Both the position numbers and the translations under genes were made by a program. Below the pieces are notes generated by a model. That model was not told the DNA's origin and did not search any database. It worked only from the letters and a program-made list of their open reading frames with translations. Positions 36,120 to 59,227 of a DNA stretch of 64,000 nucleotides are shown piece after piece (position 1 is the stretch's first letter; every line of letters starts with the position of its first letter). The stretch is from a virus (taxonomy: Duplodnaviria; Caudoviricetes). The stretch lies in IMG/VR virus record IMGVR_UViG_3300011008_000999. The stretch is one strand, 5' to 3'.

Positions 36120-37929
36120 TTATGAACCAAATGTAGAATCTTCATCATCGTCTTCCATGTCTTCTTCACGCTTCTTAGCAAATGGGTTAGAAGTAAGAAG
36201 GTTTACATCATAAATAGACTTGATACGAATAATACCATTACGATTCAATCTATCAATCATGAAGCAAGTACCTGTAGGAAAGTTAGTTGCTGATGATACA
36301 ATTGAATCTACATCAATAGCTGAAGATGGATTGATCTTAGACGTATCAAATGCATCTAAGAACAGCTGTGCTTCTTCCATAGATGACTTGAACATAAACT
36401 TAGTTGTAATGTAGTTTGCAATACCCTTAGGGAAGTGAGAAATACCCTGAGACGCAAGTACAGTAGCAACATTAAGTGAACGACCAAGAACAAGGAATCT
36501 ATCTATAATAGCACCCATCTCCTTGTTACCAAATAATAAGTGCGCCTCATCACAAATAAGTGTTGTAGGAATCTTATTATCACCAGAAAGAATATCAAGT
36601 AACTTTGTAGTTATAATATAAAGAATAGCTGATGTAAATCTTTCATTTGCATCATAGTCTTCAGGTTTCTTAGAATAATCAGGAAGACTAAGACCATGTA
36701 ATGAAATAACCATAGAATCTGTAGATGAAAGTACAAGTGGCTTTACATTTGTTTCACGAGTAAAGAGTAACTTACCATACTTGTTATCTTCAAACATCTT
36801 AAGCAATGTACCAACAGTCTGAGCATATTCATTCTGGTTAGCATAAAGATAGTCTGCAACATCCTGCATATCATAATAATCGCCAGTAGTTTTAGCTCTA
36901 GTAACAAAGTCTGTTACAATAGGTGTAATACCAATAATAGTATTTCTTTCAAGCTTACCACACATGATTTCAATAACAGTCATAAGTGTAGCAGTATCAA
37001 TATACTTAATATTACCTTTCTCGTCGATTTTCTTTAAGAATTCGAACGGATTTAAAGCACCTGGACGAATCTTATTGATGTCAATAATACTGATGTTAGG
37101 ATTTACATTATACAACTTATCAAAGTCGTTTTTAGGGTCAATAGCAATAACTCTTTGACCCATACCTAAACAATTTGCTGCAATATTTAATAGTGCAAAT
37201 GTCTTACCTGAACCAGGAGAACCTACTACAATAGTAATATCGATAGGTAAGCCTTTGAAGTTATCTCCAGCTTTTCCCCCGATCCACACCGTGCATGCGA
37301 TTTTCATCGCACACGGCGTTCCATCAAGATTTAATTATTCTCGAGTTACAATTAAACCATTGACTTGTGGCCATTACTACTATTCTCATTACAAGAATTA
37401 TCGACGCTTCGACCACTACTTTTCAGCATTAGTTAAGTAGCTTATTATTCTTCGTCTACAATCTAAATCGACTAATACCTTTCCTCGTTCCAATATATTC
37501 TATCTGTACATATACTTTTAGGTGCCTACTTTAGACTAATTTAGCTTGGATGTACCCGCCTGATAAATCATTCGTACAACATAGTATTTCATAGCCAAGC
37601 ATTTTACTTTACTACACTAAATTATCTGTATACTTCGTAGGTTCGTCAGATTTCGTTATCATTCTCACCATGAGTATTTTATAGACTTCCGGCATATTCT
37701 GCCGACTTTACCGAGCTTCTAACAATTAAAGTTTCCTTATATATTGCTAGTCGAAGATTAAAGAATGTGTTTCAAGTCGTTACTCTATCATTCCACATTT
37801 CGAATATATTAGTTCTCCATACATAACTGTATGTGTTTAGCCTTTGTGTATTTAAGCTAAAAACGAGTCGCACCCTGGCGCATTATTTACCATCTGAGCA
37901 GTTGTAGGACTCCATTTGATAGTACTCAT
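36120..37929 (-). CDS. VirB4/ConE-like conjugation ATPase, two exons (37874-37929 + 36120-37236), 390 aa spliced
   Basis: Spliced start MSTIKWSPTTAQMVNNAPG|TIVVGSPGSGKT; IDPKND, LNPF, ICDEAH, GRSLN...ASQ. Confidence 0.82.
37237..37873 (-). mobile_element. ORF-less group II intron (637 nt, class B-like)
   Basis: 5' GTGCGACTCG; domain V GAACGCCGTGTGCGATGAAAATCGCATGCACGGTGTG; domain VI ending CCTATCGATAT; EBS1 CTTGGC (37594-37599) complements IBS1 GCCAGG; excision restores the frame. Confidence 0.92.
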
Positions 37930-37932
37930 TTT

Positions 37933-38967
37933 CTAATTTTCCTCCTTTACTATAGGTCCAACTGAATAAACAGTTCCTTTATTAGTTTTGTTTCTATATA
38001 ATTTTGGAATAGGCATAATAAAATTATTCTTATTAAAGTCTAATTTAGAATATATGTCTTTTCCTAAAATTAACGATTTTAATAATAGCTTTTGTTGTTC
38101 AAAATCTTCAAATTCATATATATGTATTAGACGTATTCCTTTATCTTTGCATAATAATGATTTTTTGAGATGATAATCTTTACTACATCCATTTTCTGTA
38201 GAATGCCAATAGTTTCCATTAAATTCTATAGCTAGCTTTAAATCTGGTAAAAATATATCTAATTCATTTGGATATATAATCTTACGTCTATTTTCTAATA
38301 CTGGTCCAGTATAAAATGACTTAATATAATTTACTAAATCTTTTTCTTTATACGACATTCCAGCATTAGGTGTTATAGAACTTTTGTATTTTACTATTTT
38401 ATCTATATCTGAGTTTTTAACAAATGCATGTGCTTTATATATAGTAATATCCACAATATGTCTCCAACTATCACCATATTCTGGTATTAAATCTGTAACT
38501 AATGTACAATCATTTTCTTTTGCATACTGATCTAATAATTGTTGTTTAGTTAACTTCATTTTAGCCGAATTTACATATATCTCTGAACCATAACGTTCTT
38601 TACAAGTTTGTCTAGTTCTTTGCTGACATTCTTGAGATTTAACTGTATTAGATATTTTTCTTTTTCTTTCAGTAGTATCACCATTCCAAACATTACTTAA
38701 TTTTTGTCTAGTTTCTTTAGAAAATGTATGACCGTAAAAACTATTTAACTTACCTACTTTAGTTTTTCCTATTTCACTGAGTTTTTTATTTCTATTAAGT
38801 CTAACACATTCTGGACATTTACTACTTTTATAAAGAATTTGATGTACAGTTTTAACATAACTGCCATGTGTATCACATACTAACGTTATTGGTGTATCAT
38901 ATGTTACATCATTATATGTAAGATTTGGAAATACTGAATTGAGTCTATTTGCTAAATATGTACTCAT
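37933..38967 (-). CDS. Free-standing Vsr-like (PD-(D/E)xK) homing endonuclease
   Basis: C..HG and CPEC zinc motifs, NUMOD3-like NSFYGHTFSKETRQKLS, ELDIFLPDLKLAIEFNGNYWHS, IRLIHIYE. Confidence 0.82.
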   Translation of the reverse strand: MSTYLANRLNSVFPNLTYNDVTYDTPITLVCDTHGSYVKTVHQILYKSSKCPECVRLNRNKKLSEIGKTKVGKLNSFYGHTFSKETRQKLSNVWNGDTTERKRKISNTVKSQECQQRTRQTCKERYGSEIYVNSAKMKLTKQQLLDQYAKENDCTLVTDLIPEYGDSWRHIVDITIYKAHAFVKNSDIDKIVKYKSSITPNAGMSYKEKDLVNYIKSFYTGPVLENRRKIIYPNELDIFLPDLKLAIEFNGNYWHSTENGCSKDYHLKKSLLCKDKGIRLIHIYEFEDFEQQKLLLKSLILGKDIYSKLDFNKNNFIMPIPKLYRNKTNKGTVYSVGPIVKEEN

Positions 38968-39125
38968 TCATCTTCCTCCACCTTATCTTCTACTTTATTT
39001 TCTACTGTATTACTATTTTCATCTAAATATAATTTCTGTCCTTTTCCAGGACGTCCTACTATAAAAGTATTTTGTGAATTATTTTCTATTTTAGCTGTTG
39101 CTGGATTCCATGTAATTGATGACAT
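38964..39125 (-). pseudogene. Orphan duplicate of the ATPase N-terminus (53 aa)
   Basis: MSSITWNPATAKIENNSQNTFIVGRPGKGQ aligns with MSTIKWSPTTAQMVNNAPGTIVVGSPGSGK; RBS GGAGG; stop overlaps the endonuclease ATG. Confidence 0.8.
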
Positions 39126-39977
39126 TTTTCACCTCCATATGAAAAATAAAGAGCTCCAGAAAACTCTGAAGCTCATTGATAACTTATTGAAATTTTGTTA
39201 GTGGTAAAAAGTTATTATAACATACTGAACATTCTCGATAACTTCGTCCATGTTCATCCTTATACCGTTTAGATTCAAAGCTTTCCTTAAAAGAGATTTG
39301 TTGTCCACAATGAATGCAATTGATAGTAGTATCATCTTCAGCATTAGTAACAACATTCCAACCATTAGGAATTGTAGCTTCACTATACTTGCCATTAACG
39401 ATATTATACCGATGTACGATCATTGTCAATCCTCCTTAGTAAAAACGAGTAATAACTTCAGGTTTAGTTACATTCAATTCATCATCAGAATATCTAAATT
39501 TCTTCTTAAGATAAATTGCAATTCTATACGCATCATTATTATTTGATCGATAACCATGTCTGTCTTTATTTGAAGCAATGTCAAAAAACTGCTCAATAAA
39601 GTCTGAAAGTTCTTCAGTTGACTTTGTAGTCATAATTGTGATACTCGCACATACATCTCCATATGCATCTGATCTAAGGGTTAAGGTTAGTGTTCTCATT
39701 TTATAATTTCCTTTCTTATTTAGTTATCTTCCTTCATTCGCATAAATCCATGCTTCATGACCTTTGTATTCCCAGAGCTTAATCTTTTCAATTCCGCTCT
39801 CAATCTCAATATCATACTTAGTGAATTCCTTTGCTTCCTCACCAGTATCTTCTGCAATCCACTGTTCTTTCATTGTTACTTGTCTGTCAGTTCGTTCTAC
39901 AACTGTGTAATGAACATCACCACCATATAACATAGTTCCTCTATAAGTCTTACCTACTTCAAACTTATTATCCATAG

Positions 39978-44057: not shown

Positions 44058-45623
44058 TTATTTCTTCCATTCAAATTTTAATGAACCACTACCCCAAATT
44101 ACTGGATAATTCTTAAGCTTACTATATAACTTAGGGTTTCTTGCAACTACATTATCTCTAGATATTACATACCATTTATTTGGACCAGTATCTCCAATTA
44201 GCTCCATACCTAAAGCTAAATAAGACTTACCATCAAACTTATTAAAGTCACAATAACTGAATACTTTTGATGGAGTATAATCAGTGACAAAATGTTTAAA
44301 TAACTTACTTACACCACCTATGACTATATTATTAGAACCTGGACAACCACGAATGATTTCCCATTCATTATCGTTTTTAAGGTTTCTATTATATCTAGTT
44401 TTACTAAATGACATAAGTTGAACTAATTCATTTTTGTAGAATAATCCATACGTAACTTGAGCATTTCTATGACCTTGTAAATGCGTAGCTTCATTAAATG
44501 GTTTAGCATCTTGATTAGATATTAGCCTAACTTCACACTGACGAGCATATATCTTAGATACTGAACCTAATGATATATTCAGTAACTGCTTAATCTTATC
44601 AGGATAATTAGACCATTCCCATTCATAAATATGAATCAATCTTATTCCTCTATCTCTACAAGCTTTAGACTTATCTATATGATAAGTTTTATTCTTATGT
44701 TCTGCATCATGCCAGAATGTTCCATTACACTCTATAGCAATATGTTTATCTGGAATATATACGTCTAATTCATAAGGCTTTAGAATATCTCTAGTATTAG
44801 TAATAATCTTACCAGAATAGATAGATTTAATGTAGTCAATAACTTCAGTTTCAAATAAAGAACTTTGATAATGATTAATCTCACTATATTTTTGGATATT
44901 GATAAGCTCTGAATTCTTTATAAAGGCATTATTTCCACAATAAATAGGATGTACGTTAATCTTATCAATAACAAAAGTCCAACCAAAACCATATTTCTGA
45001 ATAACTTCATCTCTACTAATACAATCATTTTGTATCATAAATTCTTGTAATCTAGACTGTTTTAATTGTTTTGTATGTTGTTTTACTATATCAGACTGCT
45101 GAGGACGTTCTGTACCATATTTAGCTAAACTAGTAGCTTTACTTTTGTCCTTAACATCATCACTTTGCCAAGAATACTCTACTCCATAACGTTCTAGATT
45201 AGTTTGTCTAATCTTTTCTTTTATTTGTTCCGATGCATATACATTTTCAACACCATACTTCTCGACGTTTGTTTTAGCTCTTTTAGTCTTAGCTTCTTTT
45301 GATTGACTATTTACTTTTGCTTTTTCTTTAGTCTCCTCAAGATTAAGATTGCATTTTACTCCATATTTTTCAATAGAAGTTTGTTTAATCTTTTCTCGGA
45401 CCACTGGATCTAAGTTAGCACACTTAGAAGAACAATATAATCTATAACCAGTTAGTATAGTATCAAATGCAGTTTCTTTTCCACAAATCTTACACTTACC
45501 TTCAGAATCAGTTTTAAGATACTTATCATAATAATCTTTACTTGCTAACTGATGTTTTCTCTTAAGATGACTACTTATTCCTTTAGGTCCGCATTCTTGA
45601 CCACATATTTTACACTTAAACAT
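44058..45623 (-). CDS. Homing endonuclease: zinc fingers + Vsr-like nuclease + Hef-like C-terminal domain
   Basis: CKICG..SHL...H, KYGVE repeats, ELDVYIPDKHIAIECNGTFWH, IYARQCEV..HLQG..GGVSKL..FSYCD. Confidence 0.82.
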   Translation of the reverse strand: MFKCKICGQECGPKGISSHLKRKHQLASKDYYDKYLKTDSEGKCKICGKETAFDTILTGYRLYCSSKCANLDPVVREKIKQTSIEKYGVKCNLNLEETKEKAKVNSQSKEAKTKRAKTNVEKYGVENVYASEQIKEKIRQTNLERYGVEYSWQSDDVKDKSKATSLAKYGTERPQQSDIVKQHTKQLKQSRLQEFMIQNDCISRDEVIQKYGFGWTFVIDKINVHPIYCGNNAFIKNSELINIQKYSEINHYQSSLFETEVIDYIKSIYSGKIITNTRDILKPYELDVYIPDKHIAIECNGTFWHDAEHKNKTYHIDKSKACRDRGIRLIHIYEWEWSNYPDKIKQLLNISLGSVSKIYARQCEVRLISNQDAKPFNEATHLQGHRNAQVTYGLFYKNELVQLMSFSKTRYNRNLKNDNEWEIIRGCPGSNNIVIGGVSKLFKHFVTDYTPSKVFSYCDFNKFDGKSYLALGMELIGDTGPNKWYVISRDNVVARNPKLYSKLKNYPVIWGSGSLKFEWKK

Positions 45624-45664
45624 ATTTATCTCCAATTCTACTTAGAGATAAATATCTCTAAGCT

Positions 45665-46063: not shown

Positions 46064-46957
46064 TTAATTCACCTCCAATTTACCTGCACCATATATAGTA
46101 TATCCATTATCATATATCTTAGTTGGTTCAGGAATAACATCTAATAAACTATTTTTATTAAAGTCATTTTTAGGATATTTGTCTATACCTAAAATCAATT
46201 CTTTTAATAAATGTTTTTGTTTATCAATATCTTCAAATTCATAAATATGTATTAGACGTATACCTTTATCTCGACATAATAATGACTTATGTAAATGATA
46301 ATCTTTAGGCGTTCCAGCATTTACAGAATGATACCATTTACCATTATACTCTATGGCTAATTTCAAATCTGGCAAATATATGTCTAATTCGAATGGATAA
46401 ATAATCTTACGTCTATTTTCTAGTATTATTCCTTTATAGAACGTTTTTATATATTCTACAAGTTCTTTTTCTGCATGTGAAGTGCTACAATTAGGCCTTT
46501 TTACTGATACATAGTCTATAATTTTTTGTATTTCATTGATAGGCACAAATTTAGTTTGACTATCCATATAAATAAAATTAACTATATTACTTGAATACCA
46601 ACCATGTCCATATTGTACTCTTAAATCATTCGCAAATATACAATTATGGTCAAGCTCAAATTGTTTTATTTTACTATTTCTAGTATCTTTCCATGCATTA
46701 GGATTAAAATGATCCTTGTCTGAATACATACATTCTGGCGAGCAATATTTTCCAATATATCCTATAGAGATAGTTTTGAACTTGGTATCTTTTCCACATA
46801 CTGTACATTTTCCTTCATTAGGTTTTCTTAAATATTTATCATAATACTCTTTAGCTGAAAGTTTATGTTCAATAAGATGATTACCTAATACTTTACATGT
46901 TTTACTACATATTATACAAGTTTGTGATTGATCTCCATTACGATCGAACCATCCCAT
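46064..46957 (-). CDS. Free-standing Vsr-like homing endonuclease
   Basis: Zinc fingers, EYYDKYL...EGKC, ELDIYLPDLKLAIEYNGKWYHS, IRLIHIYEFED. Confidence 0.82.
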   Translation of the reverse strand: MGWFDRNGDQSQTCIICSKTCKVLGNHLIEHKLSAKEYYDKYLRKPNEGKCTVCGKDTKFKTISIGYIGKYCSPECMYSDKDHFNPNAWKDTRNSKIKQFELDHNCIFANDLRVQYGHGWYSSNIVNFIYMDSQTKFVPINEIQKIIDYVSVKRPNCSTSHAEKELVEYIKTFYKGIILENRRKIIYPFELDIYLPDLKLAIEYNGKWYHSVNAGTPKDYHLHKSLLCRDKGIRLIHIYEFEDIDKQKHLLKELILGIDKYPKNDFNKNSLLDVIPEPTKIYDNGYTIYGAGKLEVN

Positions 46958-58353: not shown

Positions 58354-58363
58354 AATTTTCCTC

Positions 58364-59227
58364 CTATAATAATTTTCCTGCTCCATATACATGATAATTT
58401 CTTTCACTAGTATGTATTAAAACAGGCTTTGGAATCTTTCCAAAATTGTTTTTATTGAAATCCTTTTCATTATATAAGTCAATTCCATTTAATAAAGAAT
58501 TTAACTTATAAATCTGTATATTAAAATCTTCAAATTCATATATGTGTATAAGTCGTATATCTTTATTTCTGCACATAATTGATTTTCGTAAATGATAATC
58601 TTTAGCTATTCCAGCTTCTAATGAATGATACCAGGTTCCATTATACTCTACTGCAAGCGTTAATTCTGGAAAATATAAATCTAATTCTAATGGTGATATT
58701 ACTGTTTTTGTATTTTCAAATACCTTTCCATTATAATTGATATATTTTAGAATATTCTTTTCCTTATGACTTCTTCCACTTATAGGTGTATATTTGAATG
58801 ACTTAATAATATCGAGATATTTATTATCTACATATTGGTACATCTTTGATACACGTATAATTGGAATATCAAGTCTTTGCCAATCACGTCCATATAAATC
58901 AATTAACTTTACAATATGCGTACAATTATTTGATTTTTCAAATTCATCTATTATTTGATGCTTAGTTTTCCATTGATTTAAATGATCCACTTTACTAAAA
59001 TTGCTTTGGGCAATAACTTGACACCTTTTACAACAATACGTATTATATCCTCTATCCATTCCATAGAAGTTAGTTGGTCTATTACATACGAGACATATTC
59101 CTTCATTTGATTGTTTCATGTATTTATCATAATACGAATGTTTATCTAAATTATGATAACTAGTAATATGTTTACTTAATGGTTGAATATTTTTATATTC
59201 TTTACCACATATATTACATTTTACCAT
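58364..59227 (-). CDS. Free-standing Vsr-like homing endonuclease
   Basis: CNICG..LSKHI..H, YYDKY...EGIC, ELDLYFPELTLAVEYNGTWYHS, IRLIHIYEFED. Confidence 0.82.
   Translation of the reverse strand: MVKCNICGKEYKNIQPLSKHITSYHNLDKHSYYDKYMKQSNEGICLVCNRPTNFYGMDRGYNTYCCKRCQVIAQSNFSKVDHLNQWKTKHQIIDEFEKSNNCTHIVKLIDLYGRDWQRLDIPIIRVSKMYQYVDNKYLDIIKSFKYTPISGRSHKEKNILKYINYNGKVFENTKTVISPLELDLYFPELTLAVEYNGTWYHSLEAGIAKDYHLRKSIMCRNKDIRLIHIYEFEDFNIQIYKLNSLLNGIDLYNEKDFNKNNFGKIPKPVLIHTSERNYHVYGAGKLL

Follow-up and report, generated by a model that had tools for sequence, protein, structure and literature searches.

A homing endonuclease gene, a group II intron and an orphan gene start at the 5' end of an ATPase gene in a gut jumbo phage

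Layout of the ATPase locus

The stretch of DNA analysed here (hereafter the window, 64,000 nucleotides (nt) long) comes from IMG/VR virus record IMGVR_UViG_3300011008_000999, the genome of a gut jumbo phage, which has direct terminal repeats and a length of 331,944 bp; the window corresponds to the minus strand of that record between positions 79126 and 143125. At the 5' end of one of its genes, which encodes an ATPase, three layers of selfish DNA lie together: a free-standing homing endonuclease gene (HEG_A), a group II intron and an orphan duplicate of the gene start. An earlier note on this DNA had given the order as orphan start, endonuclease, second start, intron and rest of the gene, with an ATGA overlap between the first two. 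All five elements are present in that order on the minus strand (Table 1), and the TGA of the orphan indeed overlaps the ATG of the endonuclease open reading frame (ORF). Only three bases separate the endonuclease stop from the ATPase ATG at 37929; 18 codons follow, and the intron then begins with GTGCG at 37873.

The ATPase matches Pfam PF12846 (AAA_10) over residues 25-369 (E=1.8e-30), with its Walker A motif present. No close homologue was found in GenBank phages, where the best match is 23% identical, so that no cultured system was found. The comparisons below draw on about 90 related loci that we collected (L numbers). G+C is ~30% in the window, and almost every gene lies on its minus strand.

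Table 1. Features at the 5' end of the ATPase gene (positions in the window; aa, amino acids)
Feature	Coordinates	Strand	Remarks
Zn-ribbon gene, upstream neighbour	39429..39184	-	
Terminator-like hairpin after the Zn-ribbon gene, just before the orphan ribosome-binding site	39151..39174	-	10-bp stem, then a T run
Orphan 53-aa ORF, degenerate duplicate of the ATPase start	38964..39125	-	good Shine-Dalgarno sequence; stop overlaps the endonuclease ATG
Free-standing homing endonuclease gene HEG_A, 344 aa	37933..38967	-	3' end holds the ATPase ribosome-binding site
ATPase exon 1, 18 codons + 2 nt (56 nt)	37874..37929	-	last 6 nt, GCCAGG, are intron-binding site 1 (IBS1)
ORF-less group II intron I19, 637 nt	37237..37873	-	Rfam RF02004, RF00029
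ATPase exon 2, AAA_10 (VirB4/TraG-like) P-loop ATPase	36120..37236	-	begins T/ACT ATT GTA; Walker A GSPGSGKT

The intron, the endonuclease and their joint movement

The intron (I19, inserted at codon 19) is recognised by two Rfam models: RF02004, which covers domains I-IV, scores 105 bits against a cut-off of 34.5 (37817..37678), and RF00029, which covers domains V/VI, scores 59.8 bits against a cut-off of 40 (37321..37237). Its ends (5' GTGCG, 3' ...GATAT) fit the GUGYG and AY criteria, and the Rfam alignment shows both a CGC triad and, at position -8 (8 nt before the 3' end), a bulged A. A candidate for exon-binding site 1 (EBS1), CTTGGC at 37599..37594 (intron position 275), pairs with the exon sequence GCCAGG; EBS2 was sought in I19 and not found. 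The longest stop-free stretch of the intron is 33 codons, no ORF remnant was found inside it, and a search of the whole 332-kb genome for reverse transcriptase (RT) or maturase domains (PF00078, PF08388) gave no matches. We thus class I19 as an ORF-less member of group II, and it is the only group II intron in the 332-kb genome, where a second one was sought without success. A domain V pattern, used to look in bacterial genomes for a parent intron with an RT, returned at least 120 generic matches with similarity confined to domains V/VI, and the 80 loci sampled include no close full-length bacterial relative of I19.

Joining 37874 to 37236 restores the reading frame and gives ...NNAPG/TIVVGSPGSGKT (a slash marks the junction), and intron-less alleles read ...NNAPGTIVVGSPGSGKT straight through it. 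Dozens of intron-less metagenomic homologues, 95-97% identical, are uninterrupted across NNAPG/TIVVG and confirm the predicted splice junction. Other metagenomic homologues begin with a read-through of domains V/VI (MK[IV]ACTVW...), which indicates that they carry the same intron; gene callers likewise start the ATPase of the window within the intron (36120-37307, minus strand, MKIACTVW...). Many such read-through products are found in the public protein collection, so the N-termini of the family are widely mis-annotated.

On the endonuclease itself, Pfam recognises only DUF723, at the N-terminus; close homologues carry NUMOD3 and DUF723. A profile built from 12 homologues matches the catalytic domain of I-Bth0305I (3R3P, E=3.9e-4). 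Foldseek with the AlphaFold model (mean pLDDT 69) retrieved 3r3p (probability 0.99, TM(target) 0.70) and 1vsr (probability 0.98), both with E-values >0.03, and the whole 344-aa model gave nothing at E<=0.001; since these matches to the Vsr and I-Bth0305I folds are weak by E-value, the assignment leans on the profile match too. E208, D237, E248, H255 and H266 are invariant among the homologues and fit the EDxHD/Vsr pattern, and the nearest matches in GenBank, from Campylobacter and Yersinia phages, are annotated as "Hef-like homing endonucleases". The predicted product is an EDxHD/Vsr-like ("Hef-like") enzyme with N-terminal DNA-binding modules of the DUF723/NUMOD3 type and a C-terminal nuclease domain. 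Three Hef/Vsr-like paralogues, at 41-50% identity, are encoded elsewhere on the minus strand (44058-45635, about 46076-46726 and about 58355-59029); one of the three has an in-frame TAG.

The intron has a history of its own. Between phages I19 is 92-99% identical, whereas exon 2 of the same phages is 72-82% identical; the two values are 99.2 and 74.8% for the window and L023, 98.4 and 75.3% for L077 and L078, and 96.5 and 73.4% for L074 and L024. The nearest exon 2 to that of the window is in L074 (90.8%) and the nearest intron in L023, so that intron and exon patterns are incongruent. On the right, high identity ends 3 to 7 nt past the 3' splice site in every pair compared. On the left, its extent varies: with L023 a continuous tract of ~99% identity takes in exon 1 (55/56) and reaches ~190 nt into the 3' end of the endonuclease gene, and with L078 it stops at most ~14 nt from the 5' splice site. 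The 3' part of the endonuclease gene is also 94% identical to that of L024, with exon 2 at 72-77%. These tracts support horizontal movement of the endonuclease gene, the 56-nt exon 1 and the intron. The earlier note had the endonuclease invade the P-loop coding region, a cut site that the end of the orphan might suggest; for the present cassette this site is contradicted, as positions +8 to +45 of exon 2 are co-converted in no pair.

The intron is also associated with one endonuclease clade. A gene of the HEG_A clade, or its remnant, lies directly before exon 1 in 9/9 loci that carry I19 as their only intron (the window, L095, L074/75, L077, L021, L023, L024, L025 and L096), on six backbones with differing upstream neighbours. 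The clade is monophyletic (support 90/90), and no member of it was found before the ATPase in the roughly 30 other backbones; the association has p=5e-7 in a rough Fisher test, to be read with the proviso that the backbones are not phylogenetically independent. On one backbone HEG_A is optional: the window, L095 and L074 have it, L067, L069, L072 and L084-88 do not, and in L006 its slot is filled by another endonuclease. The proposal of the earlier note that the intron spreads together with the endonuclease is supported by this co-occurrence across loci, and a partnership of the two is well supported on comparative grounds.

The codon-19 pair has a parallel. In other loci a second group II intron (I7) sits at codon 7, 36 nt upstream of the I19 site. 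Its partner in L006/L018 and L089-93 is a second endonuclease lineage, of which L019 retains a remnant. Like I19, I7 is more conserved than the exons; between L078 and L080 the exons are 98.8% identical and the codon-7 introns 88%, which points to intron turnover. Both introns occur together in L019 (L019:3671-4999) and in L078-82 (L078:2745-4071). The second endonuclease lineage, which combines a zinc finger with DUF7487, is intact in L089-L091 (342 aa) and split into ORFs of 260 and 93 aa in L006:4236-5277, a copy that is probably decaying. Downstream of the ATPase in L078, a gene for a 549-aa DUF7487 endonuclease is closely followed by a HEARO RNA (RF02033, 130 bits; L078:6792-7001). Other alleles of the ATPase carry an intein-like insert right after the GSGK of Walker A, as in L010:4837-7014 (=L031) and protein P0091, with products of 725 and 649 aa; P0091 matches Pfam Hom_end_hint, and the insert of L010 starts with P, not C. 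Together these insertions make the first 35 codons of the ATPase a general hotspot.

The orphan gene start

The orphan aligns with the true N-terminus of the ATPase from residue 1 of both (16/34 identical, BLASTP E=2e-10), and a degenerate motif of the start occurs in the window at these two places only and in 0 of 100 shuffles. In it, a degenerate copy of about codons 1-35 is followed by an acidic tail. L074 and L006 share the last ~11 codons, which form a leader with a ribosome-binding site; the final codons hold the Shine-Dalgarno sequence of the endonuclease gene. Its Walker A motif is degenerate (GRPGKGQK), and the duplicate had been described as breaking off inside it; in fact, homology to the ATPase continues for ~5 codons past the motif, to about codon 34-36. 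In the orphans of relatives the motif still looks intact (GSPGAGKS), with FYILN after it. We considered and rejected the tail as the C-terminus of an upstream gene of the donor: it has no similarity to ThyA, encoded upstream of the endonuclease in L025.

Homologous orphans are found in L006, L067, L069, L072, L084-88 and L095; a search of IMG/VR for more, with a conserved 27-nt pattern, found only the L006 phage. The contexts of these orphans are diverse. In L006 the same orphan and tail precede a different endonuclease (HEG_B), again with an ATGA overlap. In L072 and L067, the closest intron-less relatives, the orphan tail runs straight into what is left of HEG_B, its last ~14 codons, directly ahead of an intact gene; judged from its sequence, this arrangement is a deletion scar, and it keeps the ATPase ribosome-binding site. 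L069 and L084-88 have further orphan variants and no endonuclease, and the tail is frame-shifted in L069 and L084. L095, in which the endonuclease is 95% identical and the layout is that of the window, has an orphan that decayed differently (the N-terminus differs in L067 as well). L074 carries the endonuclease of the window on the same backbone and only a ~30-nt leader in place of the orphan body, and the orphan is wholly deleted in L074, L077, L025 and L096 with the endonuclease intact. Because relatives carry the orphan with a different endonuclease or with none, it predates the present one. Of the idea that the endonuclease brought a replacement 5' end, what stands is that the first 19 codons travel with the cassette (exon 1 matches L023 at 55/56 positions, exon 2 at ~75%). 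Its other half, that the present endonuclease created the orphan, falls with the loci just listed, which share the orphan beside another endonuclease or none, or lack it beside this one.

The orphan is drifting. Among loci that encode identical ATPases it differs at 1.4-8% of sites and by a 3-nt indel, a rate close to the synonymous rate of the ATPase gene, as given by raw difference counts over too few sites for a formal ratio of non-synonymous to synonymous change (dN/dS). We read it as a probable pseudogene fragment, the frame end and Shine-Dalgarno sequence of which are preserved because they serve the endonuclease. At the position that corresponds to the codon-19 insertion site, AAT replaces GGT (SPN/T vs APG/T) in the orphans of lineages with a current or recent endonuclease (39070-39040, minus strand, in the window), and the orphans of L084-88 keep CCAGG/TACT (L084:3400-3440). 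The AAT-for-GGT replacement may be a resistance change in the orphan copy.

Younger orphans elsewhere give an idea of how such duplicates arise. In L058 a ribosome-binding site and 12 codons are kept exactly where the endonuclease-free relative L044 has its gene start; after them come 7 foreign codons and, through a GTGA overlap, a Hef-like gene. Beyond it the ribosome-binding site occurs a second time, ahead of an intact gene without an intron; the only differences between this gene and the orphan are synonymous ones, in codons 9-13. Here the recipient would have been cut near codon 12, its right end copying the donor 5' end and the endonuclease gene and its left end being joined illegitimately where upstream homology was lacking. 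This 12-codon orphan suggests that orphans are scars of endonuclease entry without upstream homology. A third orphan type is found in L027, and all three types flank an endonuclease gene or its scar.

Explanations and known systems

In the explanation that we propose, the endonuclease would cut intron-less alleles, most likely at the codon-19 insertion site or no more than a few bases from it. Repair would copy the intron, and with it exon 1 and the endonuclease gene where the extent of resection or of homology permits; the intron would split the target in the carrier genome and thereby spare it. A break at or next to codon 19 would explain why independent transfers all end at the splice site and why exon 1 and the endonuclease gene are sometimes included. 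The orphan would be older: an earlier endonuclease cassette would have entered the genome without upstream homology, the broken 5' end of the recipient being joined illegitimately to donor DNA ahead of the endonuclease gene and the donor 5' end restoring the ATPase gene, and the displaced start would have decayed neutrally ever since. Today it would be at most an upstream ORF that offers a ribosome-binding site and ATGA coupling to whichever endonuclease occupies the slot. For this explanation as a whole, with an upstream endonuclease, an intron homing at the DNA level and an older orphan scar, we estimate a probability of about 0.6. It is tempting to extend it to separate Vsr-like endonuclease lineages, each partnered with its own ORF-less group II intron (at codon 19 and codon 7) that splits the target, at a stage that precedes entry of the endonuclease gene into the intron, and with orphan starts marking the cut sites of earlier invasions of genomes that lacked flanking homology; this generalisation is tentative, and we would give it a little less than even odds.

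Several observations weigh against the proposal: (i), the codon-19 cut site is read only from the ends of the identity tracts. (ii), in some pairs (L077-L078) identity breaks off sharply at either end of the intron, as retrohoming would also give. (iii), I19 also occurs in twin-intron alleles with a different endonuclease lineage upstream (L078-82, L019), and the codon-7 intron occurs with no endonuclease at all in L020 and L094. (iv), the co-occurrence could come in part from tight physical linkage, the two elements being 56 nt apart. (v), the orphan frame, its ribosome-binding site and the stop/start overlap are kept in about ten loci, which may reflect selection rather than pure decay, and (vi), the orphan ends about 45-50 nt beyond codon 19, a mismatch with the cut site of the present cassette, which indicates that the founding event probably involved another enzyme or extra resection.

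The most direct challenge is that I19 retrohomes, by reverse splicing and an RT supplied in trans by the host or another element, and that the endonuclease is merely linked, with a target of its own, and hitch-hikes without partnership. A foreign RT would explain intron-only transfers such as that of L077-L078, with its breaks exactly at both intron ends, and the fact that in all pairs the tracts reach no more than 7 nt past the 3' end; the intron is found beside other endonuclease lineages or none, and its domain V resembles that of many bacterial group II introns. The phage, however, has no RT, maturase or second intron and I19 no ORF remnant, the sampled bacterial loci hold no close full-length relative, and neither the tract that runs at ~99% from the 3' end of the endonuclease gene through exon 1 into the intron shared with L023 nor the 9/9 association with one clade on six backbones is what retrohoming would give. 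We consider it unlikely. The absence of an RT or maturase together with tracts that stop at the 3' splice site rather favours DNA-level homing, and a group II version of collaborative homing seems to fit the mobility data best.

The orphan may also be read differently. Selection as a functional upstream ORF, with its ribosome-binding site and ATGA or GTGA coupling, overlaps with our explanation and does not exclude it; a variant, in which the orphan encodes a small decoy peptide, is less likely. Two unrelated endonucleases are preceded by an orphan with an open frame, a Shine-Dalgarno sequence and a stop/start overlap, features that L095 and L058 retain as well, and the degenerate P-loop block is nearly identical in the window, L006 and L067. 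The amino-acid sequence nevertheless drifts about neutrally, with indels; the N-terminus is replaced in L067 and L095, the tail frame is lost in L069 and L084, and four loci have dispensed with the orphan altogether while their endonuclease is intact. A selected orphan is thus rather doubtful in our opinion, if somewhat less so than retrohoming. We give hardly any credence to an ordinary tandem duplication or an assembly error unrelated to the endonuclease: replication slippage can make short direct repeats, and nothing specific in the data points to it, whereas the same layout recurs in independent assemblies from different samples (L006/L018, L095, L072, L067/68, L069-71, L084-88) and each of the three separate orphan types flanks an endonuclease gene or scar.

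Group II introns are textbook retroelements. If our explanation holds, a neighbouring endonuclease here mobilises a group II ribozyme by a route that involves DNA only, and such pairs would be the origin of endonuclease-bearing group II introns. About 20 of the related loci provide natural before and after states: no intron, either one, both, three endonuclease lineages, deletion scars and fresh orphans. For annotation, intron-internal read-through ORFs and orphan starts are currently called as genes. Compact cassettes of this kind, predicted to self-splice and targeted by an endonuclease, are also candidate engineering parts.

The logic is that of collaborative homing, known from cyanophage S-PM2, where the free-standing endonuclease F-CphI is paired with a group I intron of psbA that lacks an ORF (Zeng, Bonocora & Shub 2009; PMC6083498). 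In both cases a free-standing endonuclease gene adjoins a gene split by an intron without a working mobility protein, intron and endonuclease are inherited together, and the intron is proposed to keep the endonuclease from cutting its own carrier. The differences are that the intron in the window is group II and not group I, that the enzyme is EDxHD/Vsr-like and not Endo VII-like or HNH, that the case made here is comparative, and that an orphan gene start accompanies the cassette. Trans homing by MobE follows the same collaborative logic, again with group I introns (PMC2790892). The nuclease domain of the window matches, by profile and fold, I-Bth0305I (EDxHD family, PDB 3R3P) and Hef of T4-related phages; identity to them is only ~20-33%, and I-Bth0305I is encoded in a group I intron.

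The orphan is best compared with the mitochondria of Allomyces and Glomus, where endonuclease ORFs bring a replacement C-terminus of atp6, atp9, cox2 or nad3 and the native C-terminus is displaced (PMC3630166). In these fungi as in the phage, the endonuclease brings its own copy of a gene end and the resident copy remains as a diverging orphan. The phage locus would be the 5'-end counterpart of this "replacement gene end": it is a mirror image, at the 5' and not the 3' end and in a phage instead of a mitochondrion, with a group II intron added and an orphan reused by successive endonucleases. In the literature searched, a single element of the locus appears undescribed: a free-standing endonuclease paired with a group II intron that has no ORF.

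The closest relatives of the system as a whole are the group II introns of phages, reported only in 2025, four of which encode CapR/DUF723-like and EDxHD/Vsr-like endonucleases that replace the RT (Merk, Jones & Eddy 2025, PMC12350094). They share with the locus described here the architecture and family of the endonuclease, the intron type, phage hosts that include jumbo phages, and the proposal of homing at the DNA level. In those introns the endonuclease gene lies inside the intron, whereas the gene in the window is free-standing, 56 nt upstream of an intron without an ORF. The free-standing arrangement is the stage to be expected before an endonuclease gene moves into the intron.

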